Shown: positions 2,043-57,768 of the stretch, one piece after another
Layout of the letters: every line of letters starts with the position of its first letter
How positions within the stretch are numbered: the first letter of the stretch is position 1
NCBI GenBank assembly: GCA_900766735.1
Contig: CAAFWO010000052.1
Location: 58,539-122,538 of the forward strand
Length of the DNA: 64,000 bases
Source: Clostridia bacterium
GTDB taxonomy: Bacteria > Bacillota > Clostridia > CAKSNL01 > HGM11501
Direction: 5' to 3'
Program-made: the position numbers and the translations under genes
Notes under the pieces: generated by a model
What the model saw: the letters and a program-made list of their open reading frames with translations, nothing else
Database searches by the model: none
What the model was told of the DNA's origin: nothing

Positions 2043-3032
2043 ATGGAAACGAAGATTTTGGATGTTGACGTTTTAAATATTGATGAGGAAAAGATCAATG
2101 AGGCGGCGAAGATGATAAGAGACGGCCGCCTTGTCGCGTTCCCGACGGAGACGGTCTACGGCCTCGGGGCAAATGCCGAAAACGAGGAGGCCGTGAAGAG
2201 CATTTTTTATGCCAAGGGAAGGCCGAGCGACAACCCTTTGATCGTTCACGTTTCCGACATCGCGATGTGCGAGAGGTATGTCAAAAAAATTCCGAAGGGC
2301 GCGGAGGCGCTGATGGCGCATTTTTGGGGCGGCCCTTTGACAATCATTATGGAAAAGAGCCCGCTTGCCTGCCAAAGCGTCAGCGCCGGGCTTGACACGG
2401 TCGGCATCAGGCTCCCGTCACACCCGGTGGCGCACGCGCTTATAAAGGCGGCGGACATCGGCATCGCCGCACCGAGCGCGAACATTTCGGGAAAGCCGAG
2501 CCCGACGCTTGCCGAGCACGTGATAGCGGACTTTTCGGGAAGAATCGATTGCATCATATCGTCCGGCGCGGCAAAGTACGGCGTCGAGTCCACCGTTATC
2601 GATATGAGCGAGGAGATACCCAAGGTTCTGCGCCCCGGCGCCGTGAGCCTTGATATGATAAGAGAGATTCTGCCGGACTCAGAGTACGGCGGAGGGGGTA
2701 AGGGCATTCCCAAAAGCCCGGGCATGAAATACAAGCACTATTCGCCGGACGCGAAGGTTTACGTCGTCCGCTCGGATATGAAAAAGACGGCGGAAAAGTT
2801 CCCGGACGGCACGGTCGTCATCGACTATAAAAAGGGCGACTACCCGGGAAAGATTTTTCTTTCTGCCGGCGAGAACGATTCGGACTATGCCGCGCGGCTT
2901 TTCTACCTTCTGCGCCTGGCGGACGAAAAGGGCGCGAAAACCGTTCTCGCGCGCGATCCAATAGGTGGAGCTCCGGTGACGGACGCGCTCATAAACAGGC
3001 TCTATAAATCTGCCGGGGGCGAGATAATATGA
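2043..3032 (+). CDS. tsaC: L-threonylcarbamoyladenylate synthase (Sua5/TsaC type, long form with Sua5 C-domain)
   Basis: YrdC/Sua5 signature VAFPTETVYGLGANA. The length is 329 aa, and it sits upstream of rimI and tsaD. Confidence 0.85.
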   Translation: METKILDVDVLNIDEEKINEAAKMIRDGRLVAFPTETVYGLGANAENEEAVKSIFYAKGRPSDNPLIVHVSDIAMCERYVKKIPKGAEALMAHFWGGPLTIIMEKSPLACQSVSAGLDTVGIRLPSHPVAHALIKAADIGIAAPSANISGKPSPTLAEHVIADFSGRIDCIISSGAAKYGVESTVIDMSEEIPKVLRPGAVSLDMIREILPDSEYGGGGKGIPKSPGMKYKHYSPDAKVYVVRSDMKKTAEKFPDGTVVIDYKKGDYPGKIFLSAGENDSDYAARLFYLLRLADEKGAKTVLARDPIGGAPVTDALINRLYKSAGGEII

Positions 3033-3451
3033 TCATTTTCGTGTGCACGGGAAACACCTGCCGAAGCCCGATGGCCGAGGGGTTTTATAAGGCGGCGACC
3101 GGGGAAGACGCGCAAAGCTTTGGCCTGATGTGCCCGGAAGGCGTTCCGGCGAGCAAAAACGCTGTTTCGGCGATGGAAAAGTTCGGGATCGACATAAAAG
3201 ACTGCACATCGCACCGCATAACGGCCGCGGCGGCCGCGGCGGCAGATGAGATTTTGTGCATGACCGAGGAGCAGAAGATAATGCTCACCTATGCATATCC
3301 CGAATATTCAGAAAAGATACGCCTGCTTTCGGAGGCGGCCGGGAAGAAAGGCAATGTGGCCGATCCGTTCGGCGGAGGCGAAAAGACTTATCTTGCCTCT
3401 GCGAAGGAAATAAAGGAGCTTGTCGATGGATATATTAAACTGCACGGCTGA
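3029..3451 (+). CDS. Low-molecular-weight protein-tyrosine-phosphatase (arsenate-reductase fold)
   Basis: N-terminal CTGNTCRSPMAEG P-loop. The ATGA overlap with tsaC suggests translational coupling. Confidence 0.85.
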   Translation: MIIFVCTGNTCRSPMAEGFYKAATGEDAQSFGLMCPEGVPASKNAVSAMEKFGIDIKDCTSHRITAAAAAAADEILCMTEEQKIMLTYAYPEYSEKIRLLSEAAGKKGNVADPFGGGEKTYLASAKEIKELVDGYIKLHG

Positions 3452-3857
3452 CGACGCCGGGGATATAAAAAGAATTGAGGACGCGTCGTTTTCGGACGCG
3501 TGGAGCAAAGCCGCGATCGGCGAGGAGATCGCAAATCGTTCCGTCTGCCTTTCCGCGTTTGACCACAAGCTGTCCGGCTATGTCTTTTTAAGGGTCATCG
3601 CACCGGAGGCGGAGATACTAAGGATCGCCGTCGCGCCGGAGAAAAGAGGGCGCGGCACGGCGGATATATTAATGAAAGAAATTTTGTCCGAAGCAGAAAA
3701 AAGGAACATAGAGACCGTGTTTTTAGAGGTTCGCGAGGACAACGCGCCGGCGCGGAGGCTTTATGAAAAGCACGGATTTATCCCGTACGGCGTGAGAAAA
3801 AAGTATTACGATGGCACCTTTGACGCGGTGCTTTACAAAAAAGAAATGAGGGGCTGA
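3426..3857 (+). CDS. rimI: Ribosomal-protein-alanine N-acetyltransferase (GNAT)
   Basis: GNAT motifs. The start is re-called to the ATG at 3426, preceded by an AAGGAG RBS. It is adjacent to tsaD. Confidence 0.75.
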
Positions 3858-5052: not shown

Positions 5053-6401
5053 CGAAAAAGACGGCGCTTTATATAAGAGTGTCGACCGACGCACAGCGCG
5101 AGGAGGGCTATTCGATCGACGCGCAGAAGGAGATGCTTTCGGCCTTCTGCGTGTCGAAAAGAATCGAAAACCACGAGTTTTTCATCGACGGAGGCTTTTC
5201 CGGGAGCAACTTGGAGCGCCCGGAGATGAAAAGGCTCATCGCCGAGGCAAAGGAGAAAAAGATCTGCCGCGTCATCGTCTATAAGCTCGACCGACTGAGC
5301 CGAAGCCAGAGAGACACCCTTTATTTAATAGAAGAAATTTTTAATCCGAACGGGATCGACTTCGTTTCGATGAACGAGAGTATGGACACGTCGACTCCGC
5401 TCGGGCGGCTGATGCTCGGCATTCTCTCCGCCTTCGCGCAGTTGGAGCGTGAAAACATCAAGGAGCGCACGAGGATGGGAATGGCCGAGCGCGTCAAGGC
5501 CGGGTTCTGGCCTGGCGGCGGACGGGTGCCGTTCGGATATGACTATGACCCCGAAAAGGGGATACTTGTCCCAAACAGCGACGCACAGACCGTGAGGCTC
5601 ATCTATAACCTCTACATTTCGGGAACTCCGATGTATAAGATCGCAAAGACGGTCGGTCTTAAATATGAGCGCCTCGCGGTGCAGATACTAAAGCGCAAGT
5701 CCAACGCCGGCTACATCGTCTATAACGGCAAAGAATATAAAGGAAGGCACGAGCCGATTATAAGCGAGGAGACCTATAATGAAGCGATGGCGCTTATGGA
5801 GGAGCGCTCGAAAAAAAGGCTGACCGATTCTGAGTATCTGCTCTCGGGAATAGTCTACTGCGGAGTGTGCGGCGCTAAGATGCGCTATCAGAAGTGGGGG
5901 AAAAGCGGCGCAAAGCTCTGCTGTTACTCGAAGGACAAAAACAAGCCCTATCTTGTAAAGGACCCTGACTGCGACAACGAAAACGTCTGGGCGTCCGAAG
6001 TGGAGGACGCGGTGGTGGGCGACATTCTGGAGCTCTCATACAAGATCGAAAAGGGAGCTTTACCCGAGGCGGACATAACGGGCGCGCTTTCGGCGAAAAA
6101 GCTTCAGTGCGAGAAAAAGTTAAAAAGGCTCTATTCGCTCTATGCCGCGGACGGCGACGAGGTTTTAAAAAGCGCGATCGCCGAGGTGAAAAAGGAACTT
6201 GAAAAAGCCGAGGCGGCGCTTTCGGATGAAAAGAAGAAGGAGGCGGAGGCCAAAAAGCGCGAGGGCAAGAGGAAAAAGCTTGAAACGTTAAAGGACACAT
6301 GGGAGTTTATGACAGCAAAAGAGAAGAGAAACATCGTCCGCAGTCTGGTCTCAAAGGTCACCGTGACGCACGACACTGTGAAAATTGAGTATCTTTTGTA
6401 A
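5049..6401 (+). CDS. Large serine recombinase (resolvase catalytic domain, recombinase domain, zinc ribbon, coiled coil)
   Basis: N-terminal ALYIRVSTDAQ with the catalytic Ser, and a CGVCG...C...C zinc ribbon. The C-terminal coiled coil is K/E-rich. Confidence 0.85.
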   Translation: MTKKTALYIRVSTDAQREEGYSIDAQKEMLSAFCVSKRIENHEFFIDGGFSGSNLERPEMKRLIAEAKEKKICRVIVYKLDRLSRSQRDTLYLIEEIFNPNGIDFVSMNESMDTSTPLGRLMLGILSAFAQLERENIKERTRMGMAERVKAGFWPGGGRVPFGYDYDPEKGILVPNSDAQTVRLIYNLYISGTPMYKIAKTVGLKYERLAVQILKRKSNAGYIVYNGKEYKGRHEPIISEETYNEAMALMEERSKKRLTDSEYLLSGIVYCGVCGAKMRYQKWGKSGAKLCCYSKDKNKPYLVKDPDCDNENVWASEVEDAVVGDILELSYKIEKGALPEADITGALSAKKLQCEKKLKRLYSLYAADGDEVLKSAIAEVKKELEKAEAALSDEKKKEAEAKKREGKRKKLETLKDTWEFMTAKEKRNIVRSLVSKVTVTHDTVKIEYLL

Positions 6402-6523
6402 ATATGTGTAACATTAATGCGTATGATGTAGTCTGCAATGCGCATATTTAGGCATTTTGATGAAAAAAGTTAATAAGGTTTAATGTTTTCACCAAAAAAA
6501 ATTAAATTTTGCTAAATTTTGTG

Positions 6524-28170: not shown

Positions 28171-28286
28171 CTGTCCGAAAAAGCTTAAACGGGTGCCGAG
28201 GCAATTTAAAGCCCTCCTTGCTAAAGGAGGGAAGAGCCGAAGGTGACGGGAGGATTTTTAGGAAGGGTCGCGGAAATATGACCAAA

Positions 28287-28320
28287 CCCCGGCGGTCGAT
28301 TCATGAATCGACCCTACGGT
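28287..28320. repeat. REP-like palindromic element, copy 1 (core GGTCGATTCATGAATCGACC with CCGG/CTACGG flanks)
   Basis: A perfect 20-nt palindrome. Near-identical copies occur at ~57737 (inverted orientation) and ~62807. Confidence 0.6.
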
Positions 28321-28505
28321 GCGTGCCTTTCGGCGCACATATTACCTTTGCACTGTTCACTATTCCTTAAACAGGCGGTCGGTGACCGCGTCTACGGGTG
28401 CGCGGGCGTAATGGGTGTGCATAAAAAACGGGAGGATGAGGGCATCCTCCCTTACGGGCGCCACAGCGCACTTTTTCCTTATTCACTATTGCATATACCC
28501 TCAAA

Positions 28506-28536
28506 CCGTAGGGGTCGATGCCCACATCGACCGGCA
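28506..28536. repeat. REP-like element, variant copy (CCGTAGG-GGTCGATG-ccca-CATCGACC-GGC)
   Basis: It has the same flanks as the other copies but a different stem-loop. Further half-copies lie at ~28383-28406 and ~28568-28590. Confidence 0.45.
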
Positions 28537-28645
28537 AATGTACACGCAGAGCAAACGGTCGAGAAAGTGAATCGACCCTACGGGTGCGCGGACAAAATAG
28601 GTTTATTGACATTCACCCGCATATATATGTATGCAGGTCTTTACT

Positions 28646-29008
28646 TTACCATTTTGTTTCGACACAGATGGCGTCTTCGGGGTCAAAATAGTCCGCAGTG
28701 CTACTCGAAAGGCCGGTGAAGGCGCGCCACGCGCGGTCAAAATCAATATCGCCGATGTTGGAGAGCACGGTAAACGTCGTGTCGCTTTCGGCATTGCCGA
28801 GCCGGCCGGCGATGAACAGGCGCTCTTTATAGGCCGTGCCGCCGGCCGTAAATGTTCCGTCGCTCATCTCGGAATATGCGACGCGGACGATGCTCTCGGC
28901 CGTTTCGTATTCGGATTCCGGGGTCGCCGGGAACTCTTTTTTCACGGTGACCTCATTTTGGCACCCGGCCAAAAGAAGCAAAGCTAAAATTAATGCAAGT
29001 TTTTTCAT
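28646..29008 (-). CDS. Small lipoprotein of unknown function
   Basis: Signal peptide with a lipobox (LLAGC). A GGGGAGG RBS lies upstream on the minus strand. Confidence 0.6.
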   Translation of the reverse strand: MKKLALILALLLLAGCQNEVTVKKEFPATPESEYETAESIVRVAYSEMSDGTFTAGGTAYKERLFIAGRLGNAESDTTFTVLSNIGDIDFDRAWRAFTGLSSSTADYFDPEDAICVETKW

Positions 29009-29026
29009 TGTTTACCTCCCCTGTGC

Positions 29027-29078
29027 TTTTACTGATTTCTCGCGCTCGGAAAAAATCTTCGGGAACGACGAAAAGATG
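29027..29078. repeat. 52-bp direct repeat, left copy (remnant of the original MATE 3' end)
   Basis: It matches 29976-30027 with 1 mismatch. On the minus strand it reads in frame as ...IFSSFPKIFSEREKSVK. Confidence 0.7.
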
Positions 29079-29975
29079 TAAGAAAAATTATGGAAGTTCA
29101 GTATTGTGGTGAAATATTGGTTAATGTTATTTGTAACAAATAACGTCTCTCTCAACAGTATTTATAGTTTCTTGAGAGATTGTATTCGTGTTTAATAGAT
29201 ATACAATGTTTAATTTTGGATTGAAAATACCTAATTTGTCTATACTTTTAAATTCCTCTTTTCCTGAATGAATTCCCATTATCCAATACATTAATAATTG
29301 TAATGTTTGTTTAGATGTTATTTTAGACTCTTTAGAAACCTTGAAATCCCATAAAGTATCGTGCGTCAGATAGTCGCCGTCACCATCGGTAACAACATTT
29401 GTATAGCCATCGTTTTCGAATGTGAATCCGGTTATAGTGACAGGCCCGTATTGTGCCCAAAATTTTATACAACGGTTAAGCATGATGCGAATATTTTCTG
29501 TTGTAATTATATCAGGACACGCACGTGGAATATCGTACGTGGCGTCACTAAAAATCGCACTAAGCGGAGATCTGTACCATACATCATATGCGCATGCTTG
29601 ACAAGCAGCCATGATTGAAGCGTCATCAGTCCCTTTTATTTGCTCTAATAAGGATGATATATCAATTTTTCTTTTTTTTAGAGTCCGCTCAAGAGATTTA
29701 TAGTTCCTTATGCATTCTTGATATCCGTATTGAGAAATTTGAAATGCTGTTTCTATTGGAACACCAATCAAAAAACGGGTTAAGTAATCAATAGCACTAC
29801 CTATAATATTGGGGCTTATGTCTTCATTACTGTTAAGAGTAATGCCATCATCAAATTTGATTTTTTCAAAACTGGAAGGCCTGACATATCCTCCATAAGG
29901 TTGTTTGATAGATCTAATACGTCCTGTAACAGTTGACATTTGAAAACCTCCTTAATTAAAATAAATTTGACTTTG
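29079..29975 (-). mobile_element. ~0.9-kb AT-rich inserted cassette carrying a single orphan gene, bounded by the 52-bp direct repeats
   Basis: A sharp compositional drop (by eye ~1/3 GC against ~55% flanks). It has its own RBS (GGAGG). A 9-bp palindrome (GTTATTTGT.ACAAATAAC) sits at the gene's 3' end. No integrase lies inside it. Confidence 0.5.
29127..29939 (-). CDS. Orphan 270-aa protein of unknown function in the AT-rich cassette; it may contain a PD-(D/E)xK-like motif (VTDGDGD...WDFK)
   Basis: A long ORF with a good RBS and atypical codon usage. I do not recognise any family. Confidence 0.55.
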   Translation of the reverse strand: MSTVTGRIRSIKQPYGGYVRPSSFEKIKFDDGITLNSNEDISPNIIGSAIDYLTRFLIGVPIETAFQISQYGYQECIRNYKSLERTLKKRKIDISSLLEQIKGTDDASIMAACQACAYDVWYRSPLSAIFSDATYDIPRACPDIITTENIRIMLNRCIKFWAQYGPVTITGFTFENDGYTNVVTDGDGDYLTHDTLWDFKVSKESKITSKQTLQLLMYWIMGIHSGKEEFKSIDKLGIFNPKLNIVYLLNTNTISQETINTVERDVICYK

Positions 29976-31358
29976 TTTTACTGATTTCTCACGCTCGGAA
30001 AAAATCTTCGGGAACGACGAAAAGATGACGATTGCGGTGATAATGCCGGCGACGAAATCGGCTATTCCTTCGGACATATAAACGCCCTTATAGCCGAGAA
30101 AATGCGTTAAGATGAAGCAGAGCGGAATTAAGATGACGACCTTGCGCATAACGGCTAAAATGAGCGCTCGCTTCGCCTGCCCGAGCGCGATGTTGACGTT
30201 TTGAAGCGTCATCTGTACGAAGAACATTACCGAGCCCATTAAAAAGAGCGGCGCGTTGGATCTCACGATCTCGGTGACAGATGGGCTTGCCGAAAATAAA
30301 ATTGCATAGACCTGGGGTACGGCGAGCGAGAACGACCAAATTGTGACCGCGAAGATGAATGCTATTATGGTGACTATTTTGATTCCCTCTTTAAGCCTCT
30401 TTGAATTTCCGCGGCCGTAGTTGTAGCTCACGAAGGGCTGCATTCCCGTTCCGAGCCCGTTTAACGGAAGCGATATTAGCTGAAGCGCGCTTTGCATAAC
30501 GGTCATCGCGGCGGTATAGTCCTTGTTTCCGCCTGTCGCGCGGTTTAGGTTGACGTTGAAAACTATCTGTATCGCGCACTCGGTAATCGTCATCACAAAC
30601 GGGGTGAAGCCAAGTGAAAGAATTGAAAGAACGATTTTCCCTGACAAGCGCATTGCCTTGGGGCTGAAACGGAAAATGCTCCTTTTCAAACAGAAAAACA
30701 AAAGCACCGCGACGCATGAAAAAAACTGAGAGATTATTGTCGCGAGCGCCGAACCGCTGACGCCCATTTTGAGAGTAAAAATAAATACCGGGTCAAGCGC
30801 TATGTTTAATACGGCGCCCAAAAGGACGGAGCACATCGCATAAAACGAATACCCCTGAGTTAATATAAACGGGTTTAACCCCTGCGCGAGCATGACAAAA
30901 AGCGTGCCGGCAGAGTAAATTCTTAAATATGACACGGCGAATGAGACTGCGCTTTCGGGACACCCGAAAAGCCTCACGATCGGCTCGGCAAGGGCGAACG
31001 CCAAAGCGCTTGTTAAAATGCCTATAATAATGAGGAGCAGAAACGAATTGCTAAAAATCGTGTTCGCCGTCTCATTTTTTCCTTCGCCTAATTTGATTCC
31101 GGCGCGCGGCGAGCCGCCGAGGCCGATCAGGTTTGAAAAGGCGGAGATGATGAGCGTGACGGGAAGAACTATCCCGAGCGCGGCCAGCGCGTCCATCCCG
31201 GAGGGTTCGATCCTCGCGACATACATTCTGTCCACTATATTATATAAAAATGTGATTAGCTGTGCGATTACTGCCGGCACGGTCAGATGAAAGACGAGAG
31301 GAAGAATCTTTCCCGCTTCAAGCTCGGCCGTGACGGGCATATTTTTTCTTTTTAACAT
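29952..31358 (-). CDS. MATE family efflux transporter
   Basis: 12 TM helices and MATE-type sequence. Its 3' end lies inside the right repeat copy. Confidence 0.8.
   Translation of the reverse strand: MLKRKNMPVTAELEAGKILPLVFHLTVPAVIAQLITFLYNIVDRMYVARIEPSGMDALAALGIVLPVTLIISAFSNLIGLGGSPRAGIKLGEGKNETANTIFSNSFLLLIIIGILTSALAFALAEPIVRLFGCPESAVSFAVSYLRIYSAGTLFVMLAQGLNPFILTQGYSFYAMCSVLLGAVLNIALDPVFIFTLKMGVSGSALATIISQFFSCVAVLLFFCLKRSIFRFSPKAMRLSGKIVLSILSLGFTPFVMTITECAIQIVFNVNLNRATGGNKDYTAAMTVMQSALQLISLPLNGLGTGMQPFVSYNYGRGNSKRLKEGIKIVTIIAFIFAVTIWSFSLAVPQVYAILFSASPSVTEIVRSNAPLFLMGSVMFFVQMTLQNVNIALGQAKRALILAVMRKVVILIPLCFILTHFLGYKGVYMSEGIADFVAGIITAIVIFSSFPKIFSEREKSVKQSQIYFN
29976..30027. repeat. 52-bp direct repeat, right copy (current 3' end of the MATE gene)
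   Basis: It matches 29027-29078 with 1 mismatch, and it encodes the present MATE C-terminus. Confidence 0.7.
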
Positions 31359-57736: not shown

Positions 57737-57768
57737 GCCCGTAGGGTCGATTCACGAATCGACCGGCC
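57737..57768. repeat. REP-like palindromic element, copy 2 (CCCGTAG-GGTCGATTCACGAATCGACC-GGCC), inverted relative to copy 1
   Basis: A 20-nt palindrome differing from copy 1 only in the loop base. The flanks are the reverse complement of those of copy 1. Confidence 0.6.

Follow-up and report, generated by a model that had tools for sequence, protein, structure and literature searches.

The DNA examined here (hereafter the window, 64,000 nt in all) spans forward-strand positions 58,539-122,538 of contig CAAFWO010000052.1, from the assembly GCA_900766735.1 of a Clostridia bacterium (GTDB Bacillota; Clostridia; CAKSNL01; HGM11501) that belongs to an uncultured gut Clostridia lineage. The locus under study comprises three genes, all of them on the minus strand: a MATE efflux transporter gene, the ORF of a short inserted cassette, and a small lipoprotein gene. 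From the transporter downstream, its features are the following:

29952-31358, minus strand: MATE efflux transporter gene (PF01554), its final codons rewritten by the insertion, now ending ...SVKQSQIYFN*
29976-30027, minus strand: MATE-proximal 52-bp copy, encoding the MATE residues ...IFSSFPKIFSEREKSVK and carrying a derived T variant (plus-strand A at 29991)
29079-29975, minus strand: inserted DNA, 897 bp, 33% GC, missing from contigs L007, L008 and L010 and from the outgroup L030
29940-29975, minus strand: cassette leader, 36 nt, with the new MATE tail QSQIYFN* and the cassette Shine-Dalgarno sequence
29127-29939, minus strand: cassette gene, 270 aa, PADLOC PDC-S61 candidate defence protein
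29079-29126, minus strand: cassette trailer, 48 nt, from the cassette stop codon to the lipoprotein-proximal repeat
29027-29078, minus strand: lipoprotein-proximal 52-bp copy, a remnant of the 3' end of MATE without coding function
29009-29026, minus strand: relic of the ancestral MATE tail and lipoprotein RBS, GCACAGGGGAGGTAAACA, which reads AQGR*
28646-29008, minus strand: lipoprotein gene, 120 aa, downstream of MATE and originally translationally coupled to it

The two 52-nt segments at 29027-29078 and 29976-30027 are identical at 51 of their 52 positions (98%), lie 949 nt apart from start to start, and differ on the plus strand by a G at 29042 versus an A at 29991. Even with up to three mismatches allowed, a search of the 64-kb window finds no occurrence beyond these two, and 100 shuffled controls gave 0 matches. 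The DNA between the copies is poor in GC: 100-bp windows across 29050-29999 fall to 0.23-0.46, the 1-kb bin at 29001-30000 (0.343) is the lowest of 64, the rest lying at 0.44-0.56, and the insert as a whole has 33% GC versus about 50% in its surroundings. Much of this had been described beforehand from the letters of the DNA (the sequence-only reading), and that description largely stands. The repeat search recovers both copies with their single mismatch, the gene readings are correct, with MATE ending in ...SVKQSQIYFN* and the left copy reading on in frame to ...SVKAQGR*, and a search for further copies of either element found the repeat only these two times in the window and the cassette only here. 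The drop in GC also holds, both in sliding 100-bp windows across 29050-29999 and in 1-kb windows, although the surroundings are at about 50% GC and not at the ~55% first proposed.

The MATE stop codon lies inside the cassette leader (29952-29954), and the Shine-Dalgarno sequence of the cassette gene, GGAGG, occupies 29947-29951. Because the cassette gene has the orientation of the operon and its own Shine-Dalgarno sequence, with no terminator-like site on the coding strand between MATE, the cassette and the lipoprotein gene, it is most likely transcribed from the MATE promoter. Further downstream, the retained repeat copy and the RBS would keep the lipoprotein gene translatable. A search of Rfam over 27-32 kb found no match to an RNA element at E <= 0.1.

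The same structure is present in GCA_902463035.1 and in several independent metagenome assemblies, on which grounds an assembly artefact was rejected. The exact cassette protein occurs on 13 contigs, all 13 of which represent this locus, so that no donor of the cassette is found among them. An apparently truncated cassette gene in one further contig (L005) turned out to be merely a scaffold gap of Ns.

The cassette protein

There is no second ORF in the 897-bp insert, and the earlier claim that it holds no integrase is thereby sustained, its single ORF being a nuclease-fold gene. The encoded protein is a full-length member of PDC-S61 (HMM E 8.9e-95, 315 bits, residues 1-270 against profile positions 1-251 of 253). 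The PDC families are candidate phage defence systems gathered by "guilt-by-embedding" in BREX, DISARM and type I RM loci (Payne et al., 10.1101/2024.01.29.577857). The cassette gene resembles the PADLOC PDC-S61 entry from that work in its full-length HMM match and as a single-gene system; whereas the PDC families came from inside defence loci, it stands alone between housekeeping genes. Elsewhere in the literature, PDC-S61 turned up only once, among the PADLOC hits given for S. thermophilus ST55.

Pfam and NCBIfam returned no match for the protein and no methyltransferase domain, PHROGs gave only a weak partial match, and a sequence search against solved structures yielded nothing significant. 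The AF2 model (pLDDT 94.7) nevertheless allows a confident prediction of a RecB/Cas4/MGME1-like PD-(D/E)xK nuclease fold. The hallmarks of RecB/Cas4-like PD-(D/E)xK enzymes are all found, namely an REase-like core fold in the model together with the catalytic D, (D/E)xK and QxxxY motifs, which read here GDGD187, D198-F-K200 and Q214xxxY218; there is no variation at D187, Q214 or Y218 and hardly any at D198 and K200 (at least 90% conserved). Within the RecB/Cas4/MGME1/lambda-exonuclease clade, the protein is set apart by the lack of a helicase partner, of the four-cysteine Fe-S cluster seen in Cas4, and of a sequence-level match to any solved structure, as well as by some 150 N-terminal, mostly helical residues without an assigned relative. 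We regard the gene as that of a candidate anti-phage nuclease, with a putative role in defence.

A true insertion that duplicated its target

Three metagenome contigs from the same species (L007, L008 and L010), whose flanks are 98.5-98.8% identical to the window, lack the insert and hold one 52-bp copy. In these empty alleles the MATE tail reads ...SVKAQGGQS*, and its TGA overlaps the ATG of the lipoprotein gene, whose protein is identical between occupied and empty alleles. The outgroup lineage L030 is also empty, with one copy and the architecture MATE...QGGQL*/ATGA-lipoprotein, from which it follows that the empty state is ancestral. With one 52-bp copy and the original MATE tail in the empty sites, the 897-bp cassette is therefore a true insertion with duplication of its 52-bp target. 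It is a presence/absence polymorphism, both alleles having been sampled within one species, and some metagenomes, the BRIT16 samples for instance, contain the two together.

These contigs settle in its favour the proposal of the sequence-only reading that a single-gene cassette had come between MATE and the lipoprotein gene. Far from always carrying the orphan gene without a repeat, the relatives include the three empty contigs just described. An empty site with the two genes contiguous had also been predicted and does exist, although its tail, ...SVKAQGGQS*, is close to but not the ...SVKAQGR that had been foreseen.

The lipoprotein-proximal copy is identical to the single copy of two of the empty contigs (L008 and L010). 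Clusters of four substitutions adjoin both repeat copies: on the lipoprotein side, the relic at 29009-29026 (GCACAGGGGAGGTAAACA) differs at four positions from the GCACAGGGAGGTCAATC of the empty allele (AQGGQS*, ATGA overlap), and derived variants in and just upstream of the MATE-proximal copy lie at 29991 and 30042-30054. Since the empty alleles keep the outgroup-type GGAGGTCAAT-ATGA, the window-type counterpart of which is GGGGAGGTAAACAATG, they are not excision products of the window allele.

A converse history, where the repeat-flanked state would be ancestral and the "empty" contigs would be deletions between the repeats, with no recent insertion at all, could appeal to the precise deletion that 52-bp direct repeats can mediate, and to the presence of a related cassette in a second lineage (L011). 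This history is largely refuted and hardly credible. The lipoprotein-proximal copy preserves the MATE C-terminus in frame, as a fossil that only a duplication at an insertion can have produced; the ATGA overlap and the GGAGGTCAAT shared by the empty alleles and the outgroup would not be regenerated by deletion; and the insert is foreign in composition.

The second lineage, for its part, complicates the history of the insertion. Its cassette is 87% identical, meets MATE within +-1-2 nt of our junction and has a homologous leader and an extra GNAT gene, but a second repeat copy is missing. Neither L011 nor the other family loci contain anything homologous to the 48-nt trailer of our cassette, and the MATE-proximal copy shows the sequence of the window species rather than that of L011. 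Four-fold-site identity runs from 0.51-0.60 on the left through 0.78-0.80 in the cassette and lipoprotein gene to 0.89-0.94 on the right, and by these values the locus is a mosaic between lineages. Because 22% of four-fold sites differ between the window and L011 cassettes, versus 1/52 between the repeat copies, two histories come into question: a duplication far more recent than the junction of cassette and MATE, which would favour a secondary homology-driven event, or a homogenisation of the copies by gene conversion.

Recurrence of the scar and candidate routes of insertion

The scar recurs in the PDC-S61 gene family. Counting bracketing, non-low-complexity repeats of at least 20 bp, we found them in 4 of 39 independent family contexts (3 of 38 without the query) and around 1 of 275 other ORFs taken as controls (Fisher p = 0.006), the controls being resident genes and not other recent insertions; this enrichment does not show that the nuclease causes insertion. 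The sole bracketed control (L036) is a pair of paralogous ABC-ATPase genes, which was rejected as an insertion. Among the family members, the duplication around a 46% identical homologue (L110) measures 26-29 bp and overlaps the stop codon of the gene upstream, which is an unrelated one; a single copy is present at empty sites from the same species (L131 and L132). Another member (L118) shows an exact 28-bp duplication upstream of uvrB. A same-species empty site for it was sought and not found, and the comparison comes from a related species (L154; PrsW protein 76% identical, DNA flanks 78-88% identical), in which no insert separates PrsW from uvrB and the duplicated segment is single. A candidate scar, in the form of a 20-bp bracketing repeat, lies at a further unrelated site (L066).

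The repeats of these four bracketed members (52, 26-29, 28 and 20 bp) are unrelated host sequences, and the members have no common termini. Bracketing repeats are absent from the other 35 of the 39 contexts and from four further family contexts (P0018, P0028, P0106 and P0079), while none of 15 members on predicted viral contigs has a repeat resembling a target duplication; an 18-bp repeat at L151 was discarded as tRNA T-arm similarity inside a tRNA array. Some family copies reside on classical mobile elements or viral contigs. Given these copies and the 35 contexts without a repeat, the scar does not mark the only, or necessarily the main, route by which PDC-S61 moves.

As to machinery, no recombinase, integrase, transposase or other mobility gene is present in the cassette or was called within ~6 kb on either side, where the genes called are SpoIIE, Fe-hydrogenase, APH, MatE, lipoprotein, DUF4367, sigma factor, EF-Tu and EF-G. 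The best terminal inverted repeat of the cassette is a 6-nt match, no cassette ends are conserved among family members, and the 52-bp repeat has neither a local inverted repeat nor dyad symmetry. There is no hairpin or fold signal at the repeat or the junctions (fold z -0.45 to +1.6), and the DNA of trailer plus repeat folds no better than its shuffles (z -0.45 to +0.1). An integron gene cassette was rejected, there being no attC-type palindrome or hairpin at the cassette 3' end; so was an IS, transposon or MITE, on account of the missing TIRs and transposase and of a duplication that measures 52 bp here versus 20-29 bp in relatives.

The sequence-only reading had explained the repeats by attP x attB integration, as in tRNA-targeting islands, with the cassette supplying a copy of the target 3' end. 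Such an event would call for a non-autonomous element with the 52-bp block in its attP and for a tyrosine or serine recombinase supplied from elsewhere. In its favour, att identity blocks can be 52 bp long, the cassette went into the 3' end of a gene, two lineages are occupied at one and the same junction position, and the mismatch pattern fits a crossover inside the block. Islands and phages at the 3' ends of genes or tRNAs likewise have terminal direct repeats that include part of the target gene, and leave the upstream gene intact with a new end derived from the element. Against this, the cassette is under 1 kb with one gene, it has no integrase, and the family has no conserved att core. 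The MATE 3' end was rewritten and not restored, its last six codons giving way to seven unrelated ones instead of a copy of the original tail. In L011 the junction is the same but a second att copy is missing, and no other copy of repeat or cassette turned up in the window or in the other contexts. Distant family members, moreover, are bracketed by different host sequences (26-29, 28 and 20 bp), with single copies confirmed in empty sites for the first two. As the family repeats vary in both sequence and length, a recombinase acting on a fixed att site is unlikely, and we consider site-specific integration very improbable.

Homologous recombination offers a different explanation for the duplication. 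In a Campbell-type insertion-duplication, a circular or concatemeric molecule, originating from an occupied allele that was older and belonged to a close relative, would have carried the cassette still attached to 52 bp or more of the MATE 3' end, and would have entered the empty allele by one RecA-type crossover inside those 52 bp. The 949-bp circle, if formed, would have its trailer TTTTTCTTA joined to CATCTTTTCG..., then ...GTAAAACAAAGTC. A MATE-cassette junction older than the duplication does exist (the L011 junction and leader; 22% versus 1/52), and the sole variant, the T, is in the MATE-proximal copy, the other copy being that of the empty allele, which fits a crossover in the first 36 nt. 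However, the joint of circularisation would have to be illegitimate and fall exactly between trailer and repeat, no donor or circle was found, the exact cassette occurring only at this locus, and 52 bp is near the lower limit for a RecA-dependent crossover. Single crossovers of circular molecules are documented to give such duplications, as a by-product of HFIR (PMC3240628), and the product is identical, a heterologous segment between duplicated homologous segments; yet the reported duplications measured 109-950 bp and came from engineered plasmids, as opposed to 52 bp and no known circular donor here. The Campbell-type event would also leave the origin of the first insertion unexplained, together with the 20-29-bp scars of L110, L118 and L066 unless each had an earlier occupied donor, and it does not predict the old-looking four-substitution segment after the lipoprotein-proximal copy if that side is pure recipient DNA. 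We see it as a possible route, if on the whole an unlikely one.

In a one-sided homologous capture, by HFIR or by a homology-primed template switch, a related donor would have paired through the MATE 3' end, and its other end would have been joined illegitimately 52 bp upstream of the end of homology. The left junction that the window locus has in common with L011, the derived variants at 29991 and 30042-30054 and the mosaic four-fold-site identity across the locus are consistent with such pairing. Classical HFIR, however, replaces or deletes recipient DNA without duplicating it (PMC3240628), the MATE-proximal copy is of the window-species type and not that of L011, and no closer donor was found, which makes this capture distinctly unlikely.

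The reading that we prefer, with a probability of roughly 55%, is that a single-gene cassette was inserted in the last MATE codons, with a 52-bp duplication, by the recombinase-independent route called "insertion with long target duplication". What is observed is its scar, from which we infer the molecular mechanism. Foreign DNA would have been captured at a chromosomal break or a stalled fork, and tens of target bases would have been copied twice during the capture, either by fill-in of widely staggered ends or by a template switch re-entering the target 52 bp behind its exit point. Homologous recombination in the flanking DNA may then have carried the occupied allele through the species, and the 52-bp repeats could in principle delete the cassette again.

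Related systems and significance

Insertion with long target duplication was described for restriction-modification genes by Kobayashi's group, and reportedly by Nobusato and colleagues in 2000.

The class was defined on restriction and methyltransferase pairs and has no established mechanism; its inserts lack mobility genes and are flanked by unique repeats of more than 30 bp that are single in the genome used for comparison, among them H. influenzae cases with 46-bp repeats that overlap the 3' end of a gene and a low-GC insert (Furuta et al. 2010, PMC2853133). Measured against this description, the present repeat is longer than 30 bp (52 bp) and single in the uninserted genomes (L007, L008, L010 and L030), and the insert is shorter than 20 kb, with no adjoining mobility gene (897 bp, one ORF); restriction and modification homologues are not both present, there being one nuclease-fold gene only. 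The likeness extends to a short foreign insert with a nuclease-type defence gene (a candidate here) and no transposase or integrase, to a direct repeat of more than 30 bp that is single-copy when uninserted, to a repeat length that varies between events and, as in the 46-bp H. influenzae cases, to a repeat overlapping the 3' end of the upstream gene. The differences lie in a cargo of one 270-aa nuclease gene, without methyltransferase or specificity subunit; in the host, since the class is known mostly from competent Proteobacteria and this locus comes from an uncultured gut Clostridia; in the insertion inside an operon, between translationally coupled genes; and in a sister lineage that has the same junction without the repeat. 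This class is the best match for the locus, whose cargo is a single nuclease gene.

An extension of this reading, which we hold to be rather unlikely, would make the PDC-S61 genes minimal selfish elements, whose own nuclease provokes or processes the capturing break and so leaves 20-52-bp duplications at unrelated sites. If true, PDC-S61 would be a one-gene, recombinase-free mobile unit, and would open to experiment the "long target duplication" route that was put forward for restriction-modification genes 25 years ago.

The spread of small defence genes without a mobility gene to new chromosomal sites is poorly understood, and the present locus, with boundaries exact to the base, is an unusually clean example of it. 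For its host, the insertion means an efflux transporter with a rewritten C-terminus and the loss of translational coupling between MATE and the lipoprotein gene. To the recombinase-free scars known from restriction-modification pairs, it adds one around a solitary nuclease gene from uncultured gut Clostridia, and the scars at unrelated targets provide a one-gene system in which to ask whether a nuclease cargo aids its own insertion.

Occupied and empty alleles at the MATE locus

The direct repeat at this locus consists of two 52-bp copies, a lipoprotein-proximal one at 29027-29078 and a MATE-proximal one at 29976-30027, which are spaced 949 bp start to start and, as had been read from the sequence alone, differ at a single position (51/52 identical). 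A search of the 64-kb window for the further copies envisaged in that reading, allowing up to 3 mismatches, returned only these two, with 0 found in 100 dinucleotide-preserving shuffles. The 897 bp between them show 33% GC, against about 50% in the surroundings (and not the 55% first estimated). The sharp drop itself was confirmed in 100-bp windows, which go down to 0.23-0.46 over 29050-29999, and the 1-kb bin 29001-30000 (0.343) is the lowest of 64, the others ranging from 0.44 to 0.56. The genes at the locus are:

28646-29008, minus strand: lipoprotein gene, 120 aa
29127-29939, minus strand: cassette ORF, 270 aa
29952-31358, minus strand: MATE transporter gene, 468 aa (PF01554, E 1.7e-37), tail ...SVKQSQIYFN*

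When the MATE frame is read on through the lipoprotein-proximal copy it gives ...SVKAQGR*, and both endings agree with the earlier gene readings. The structure is not an assembly artefact, because the NCBI assembly GCA_902463035.1 and several independent assemblies of metagenomes all have it in identical form.

Contigs for comparison were found by looking up those encoding exactly the same lipoprotein, which gave occupied and empty ones. In three contigs of the same species (L007, L008 and L010; 98.5-98.8% identical) the MATE gene is directly joined to the lipoprotein gene, and where they align to the window, the end of the MATE-proximal copy is followed at once by the first base past the lipoprotein-proximal copy; they therefore hold exactly one 52-bp copy. 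The sequence-only reading had expected an empty site where MATE ends in ...SVKAQGR and the lipoprotein gene follows. Such a site exists, but its real tail is ...SVKAQGGQS*, with the TGA overlapping the lipoprotein ATG (ATGA). The MATE protein, searched against reference genomes, gave L030, an outgroup from a separate species-level lineage with an 85% identical MATE, where the gene order (APH, MATE, lipoprotein, DUF4367), the tail (...VKKQGGQL*) and the ATGA overlap repeat the architecture of the empty contigs. Since the outgroup shares this architecture, the empty state is ancestral, and the proposed MATE-lipoprotein order into which the cassette was inserted is right. The empty alleles did not arise by excision from the window allele, because where the window reads GGGGAGGTAAACAATG they retain GGAGGTCAAT-ATGA, as in the outgroup. 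The event is an insertion that duplicated 52 bp of its target, and the lipoprotein-proximal copy is what remains of the MATE C-terminus as an in-frame fossil. The finding is real and clean: a nuclease cassette with one gene and a foreign base composition, polymorphic for presence and absence, was inserted with a target duplication that rewrites the MATE tail. By organism name, the related loci appear to come from uncultured gut Clostridia or Christensenellales-like bacteria.

Directly beside the cassette there is a second indel polymorphism. A 359-bp non-coding block (28185-28543), which separates the lipoprotein and DUF4367 genes at their 3′ ends, is missing from L007, and in L008 and L010 it is rich in SNPs. 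Within the block are internal repeats, a pair of terminator-like hairpins and a REP-like palindrome (CCGTAGGGTCGATTCACGAATCGACC) that occurs again at 57.74 kb (related coordinates 28293-28319, 28568-28583 and 57739-57765).

The cassette protein and its expression context

The cassette ORF has zero matches in Pfam and NCBIfam. It is a full-length match to the PADLOC family PDC-S61 (E 8.9e-95), and matches, less strongly, a PD-(D/E)xK domain linked to defence reverse transcriptases. The PDC families are “phage defence candidates” that were collected as genes lying inside BREX, DISARM and type I RM loci (10.1101/2024.01.29.577857), and the sole other mention of PDC-S61 that we found concerns a Streptococcus thermophilus strain, for which it is listed as a PADLOC hit. 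The gene family comprises 2076 clusters (E <= 0.001), and the closest relatives of the protein, in the window lineage, are 99% and 87% identical, all others reaching at most 60%. A confident AlphaFold model built on 53 homologues (pLDDT 94.7, pTM 0.90) gave Foldseek matches of the same kinds, but weak. All of the 53 sequences have D187 (in GDGD), Q214 and Y218, and at least 90% of them have D198 and K200, which corresponds to the D / D-x-K / QxxxY signature of the RecB/Cas4-like clade. Because the fold searches agree in kind and the signature residues are conserved, the cargo is a stand-alone RecB/Cas4-like nuclease; its defence role is a family-level prediction. Between the window and L011, a contig of a sister lineage, the protein is 86.7% identical and the four-fold sites 78%, and amino-acid change relative to synonymous change is high compared with neighbours such as EF-Tu and DUF4367, which would fit relaxed or diversifying selection on a defence gene.

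The 36-nt leader of the insert is the source of 7 new MATE codons and of the MATE stop codon, which are overlapped by a GGAGG placed 8 bases ahead of the cassette-gene ATG. Terminator-like sites are absent from the coding strand between the MATE, cassette and lipoprotein genes, and the first ones come after the lipoprotein gene; the simplest reading would be that the cassette is co-transcribed from the MATE promoter. The best sigma-70-like match in the region (29933-29962, plus strand; TTGACA, 18 nt, TAAAAT; 11/12), lies at the cassette 5′ end and faces the MATE 3′ end in antisense direction; in DNA so rich in AT it may have arisen by chance.

A locus that is mosaic between two lineages

In the sister lineage (L011-L013), the order at the same locus is MATE, cassette (87% identical), GNAT acetyltransferase and lipoprotein. 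Homology between the window and L011 is unbroken from MATE through the cassette and ends exactly at the cassette stop codon, and the L011 leader (CAA...TTAATTAAGGAGGTTTTCAAATG) meets MATE at the same position as in the window, to within 1-2 nt. A second repeat copy is absent from L011.

Four-fold-site identity, window versus L011
APH: 0.51
MATE: 0.60
Cassette: 0.78
Lipoprotein: 0.80
DUF4367, sigma factor: 0.89
EF-Tu: 0.94

The locus is a mosaic between the two lineages, whose cassettes have a more recent common ancestor than the adjoining MATE genes do. Whereas the cassettes differ at 22% of four-fold sites, the repeat copies differ at 1 of 52 positions. The duplication is possibly much younger than the MATE-cassette junction, and could come either from one-sided homologous capture or from one crossover with a circular DNA that brought the cassette and the MATE 3′ end, a process known to duplicate the homologous segment (PMC3240628). 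Gene conversion is another possibility, which would have held the copies alike. Occupied and empty alleles are separated by 4-change clusters (substitutions or indels) at 30042-30054 and 29009-29021, against about 1% elsewhere; the clusters adjoin the outer side of each repeat copy, the copies themselves being nearly identical. On the lipoprotein side, GGAGGTAAA is common to the window and L011, and GGAGGTCAAT to the empty alleles and L030. Old linked divergence with repeat homogenisation, changed RBS selection or mutagenic repair are all possible origins of these clusters.

L030, 92-96% identical to L011, is empty. The GNAT gene that follows the cassette in L011 (region 5814-6458; also in L012 and L013) encodes 168 aa, and in the APH-MATE interval of the sister lineage 5 additional genes are called, of which two are small ORFs (one a GNAT-type acetyltransferase fragment) and the others encode a Na/H exchanger, a sigma factor and a zf-HC2 anti-sigma-like protein. 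In this group the neighbourhood of MATE is a variable hotspot.

Recurrent scars in the family and the mode of insertion

The structure had been taken in the sequence-only reading as the signature of site-specific integration, which is not supported as an integrase-type mechanism. The cassette itself has no recombinase, and the genes called within about 6 kb are housekeeping ones with no recombinase among them. Neither the repeat nor its junctions show dyad symmetry, shuffled sequence folds just as well as they do, and there was no RNA family match. The search for other cassette copies that the sequence-only reading had proposed found the exact protein in 13 contigs, every one of them this locus. 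The strongest argument against site-specific integration comes from the family relatives, which show unrelated repeats of unlike lengths and no common termini.

The comparison covered 80 family loci taken from metagenomes, with others added through exact look-ups. The typical member is a low-GC single gene between housekeeping genes (median GC 0.347 versus 0.442 in the flanks). Tight bracketing by non-low-complexity direct repeats of at least 20 bp occurs in 4 of 39 independent contexts with enough flank. Among 275 other ORFs of these sequences, used as controls, 1 is so bracketed, and this hit is a paralogous ABC-ATPase gene pair; with the query locus left out, the comparison gives a Fisher p of 0.006. 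The repeats of the other three contexts (26-29, 28 and 20 bp) are unrelated to that of the window and to one another; the cassettes carry 8 to 545 nt of flanking DNA and share no common termini or terminal inverted repeats.

In the first context (L110), the insert is 1029 bp long and carries a homologue with 46% identity; its flanking repeat, ATAAA(G/A)AGCACAATTTTTTCAAAATA, overlaps with the stop codon of an upstream gene (PF19528) that is unrelated. In two contigs of the L110 species (L131 and L132) the PF19528 gene is directly followed by metK, and the 29-bp alignment overlap is one copy of the L110 repeat. In the second (L118), the family gene lies upstream of a uvrB-like gene and between two exact copies of a 28-bp repeat; in a related species (L154; DNA flanks 78-88% identical) PrsW adjoins uvrB with no insert, and the segment occurs once. 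The L118 cassette gene (region 2952-3841) is placed after an RBS and ATG that belong to uvrB in L154, and the insertion appears to have captured host translation signals; for uvrB in L118, another RBS stands behind the second copy of the repeat. The third (L066) shows an exact 20-bp GC-rich repeat around the family gene.

Most family members have no scar, and some are found on classical mobile elements, others on viral contigs. An Enterococcus-type member (P0079; L158-L162) has as neighbours an rve_2 transposase fragment, a resolvase, RelB/ParE toxin-antitoxin genes and PBECR4, so that classical mobile elements do carry other members. On a predicted viral contig of 75 kb with about 60% GC, an array of 31 tRNA genes (L151, 3414-10403) encloses a PDC-S61 homologue that is 36% identical.

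The recurrence of scars in one family at unrelated targets is the most interesting part of the finding. It does not show that the nuclease drives its own insertion, because the control genes were resident ones and not other recent arrivals. The closest known kind is the recombinase-free “insertion with long target duplication”, a term coined by Kobayashi's group for restriction-modification genes (PMC2853133). Repeats of more than 30 bp, the lack of mobility genes and a single copy in the comparator genome characterize this class, which includes cases of 46-bp repeats overlapping a gene 3′ end with a low-GC insert; the authors suggested that its mechanism might involve nuclease double-strand breakage (PMC2853133). 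The cassette family resembles it in variable repeat length, unrelated target sequences and the lack of a recombinase. The window case shares the structural features of this class, its repeat being unique within the 64-kb window, but has no methyltransferase partner; it adds a minimal cargo to this kind of insertion.
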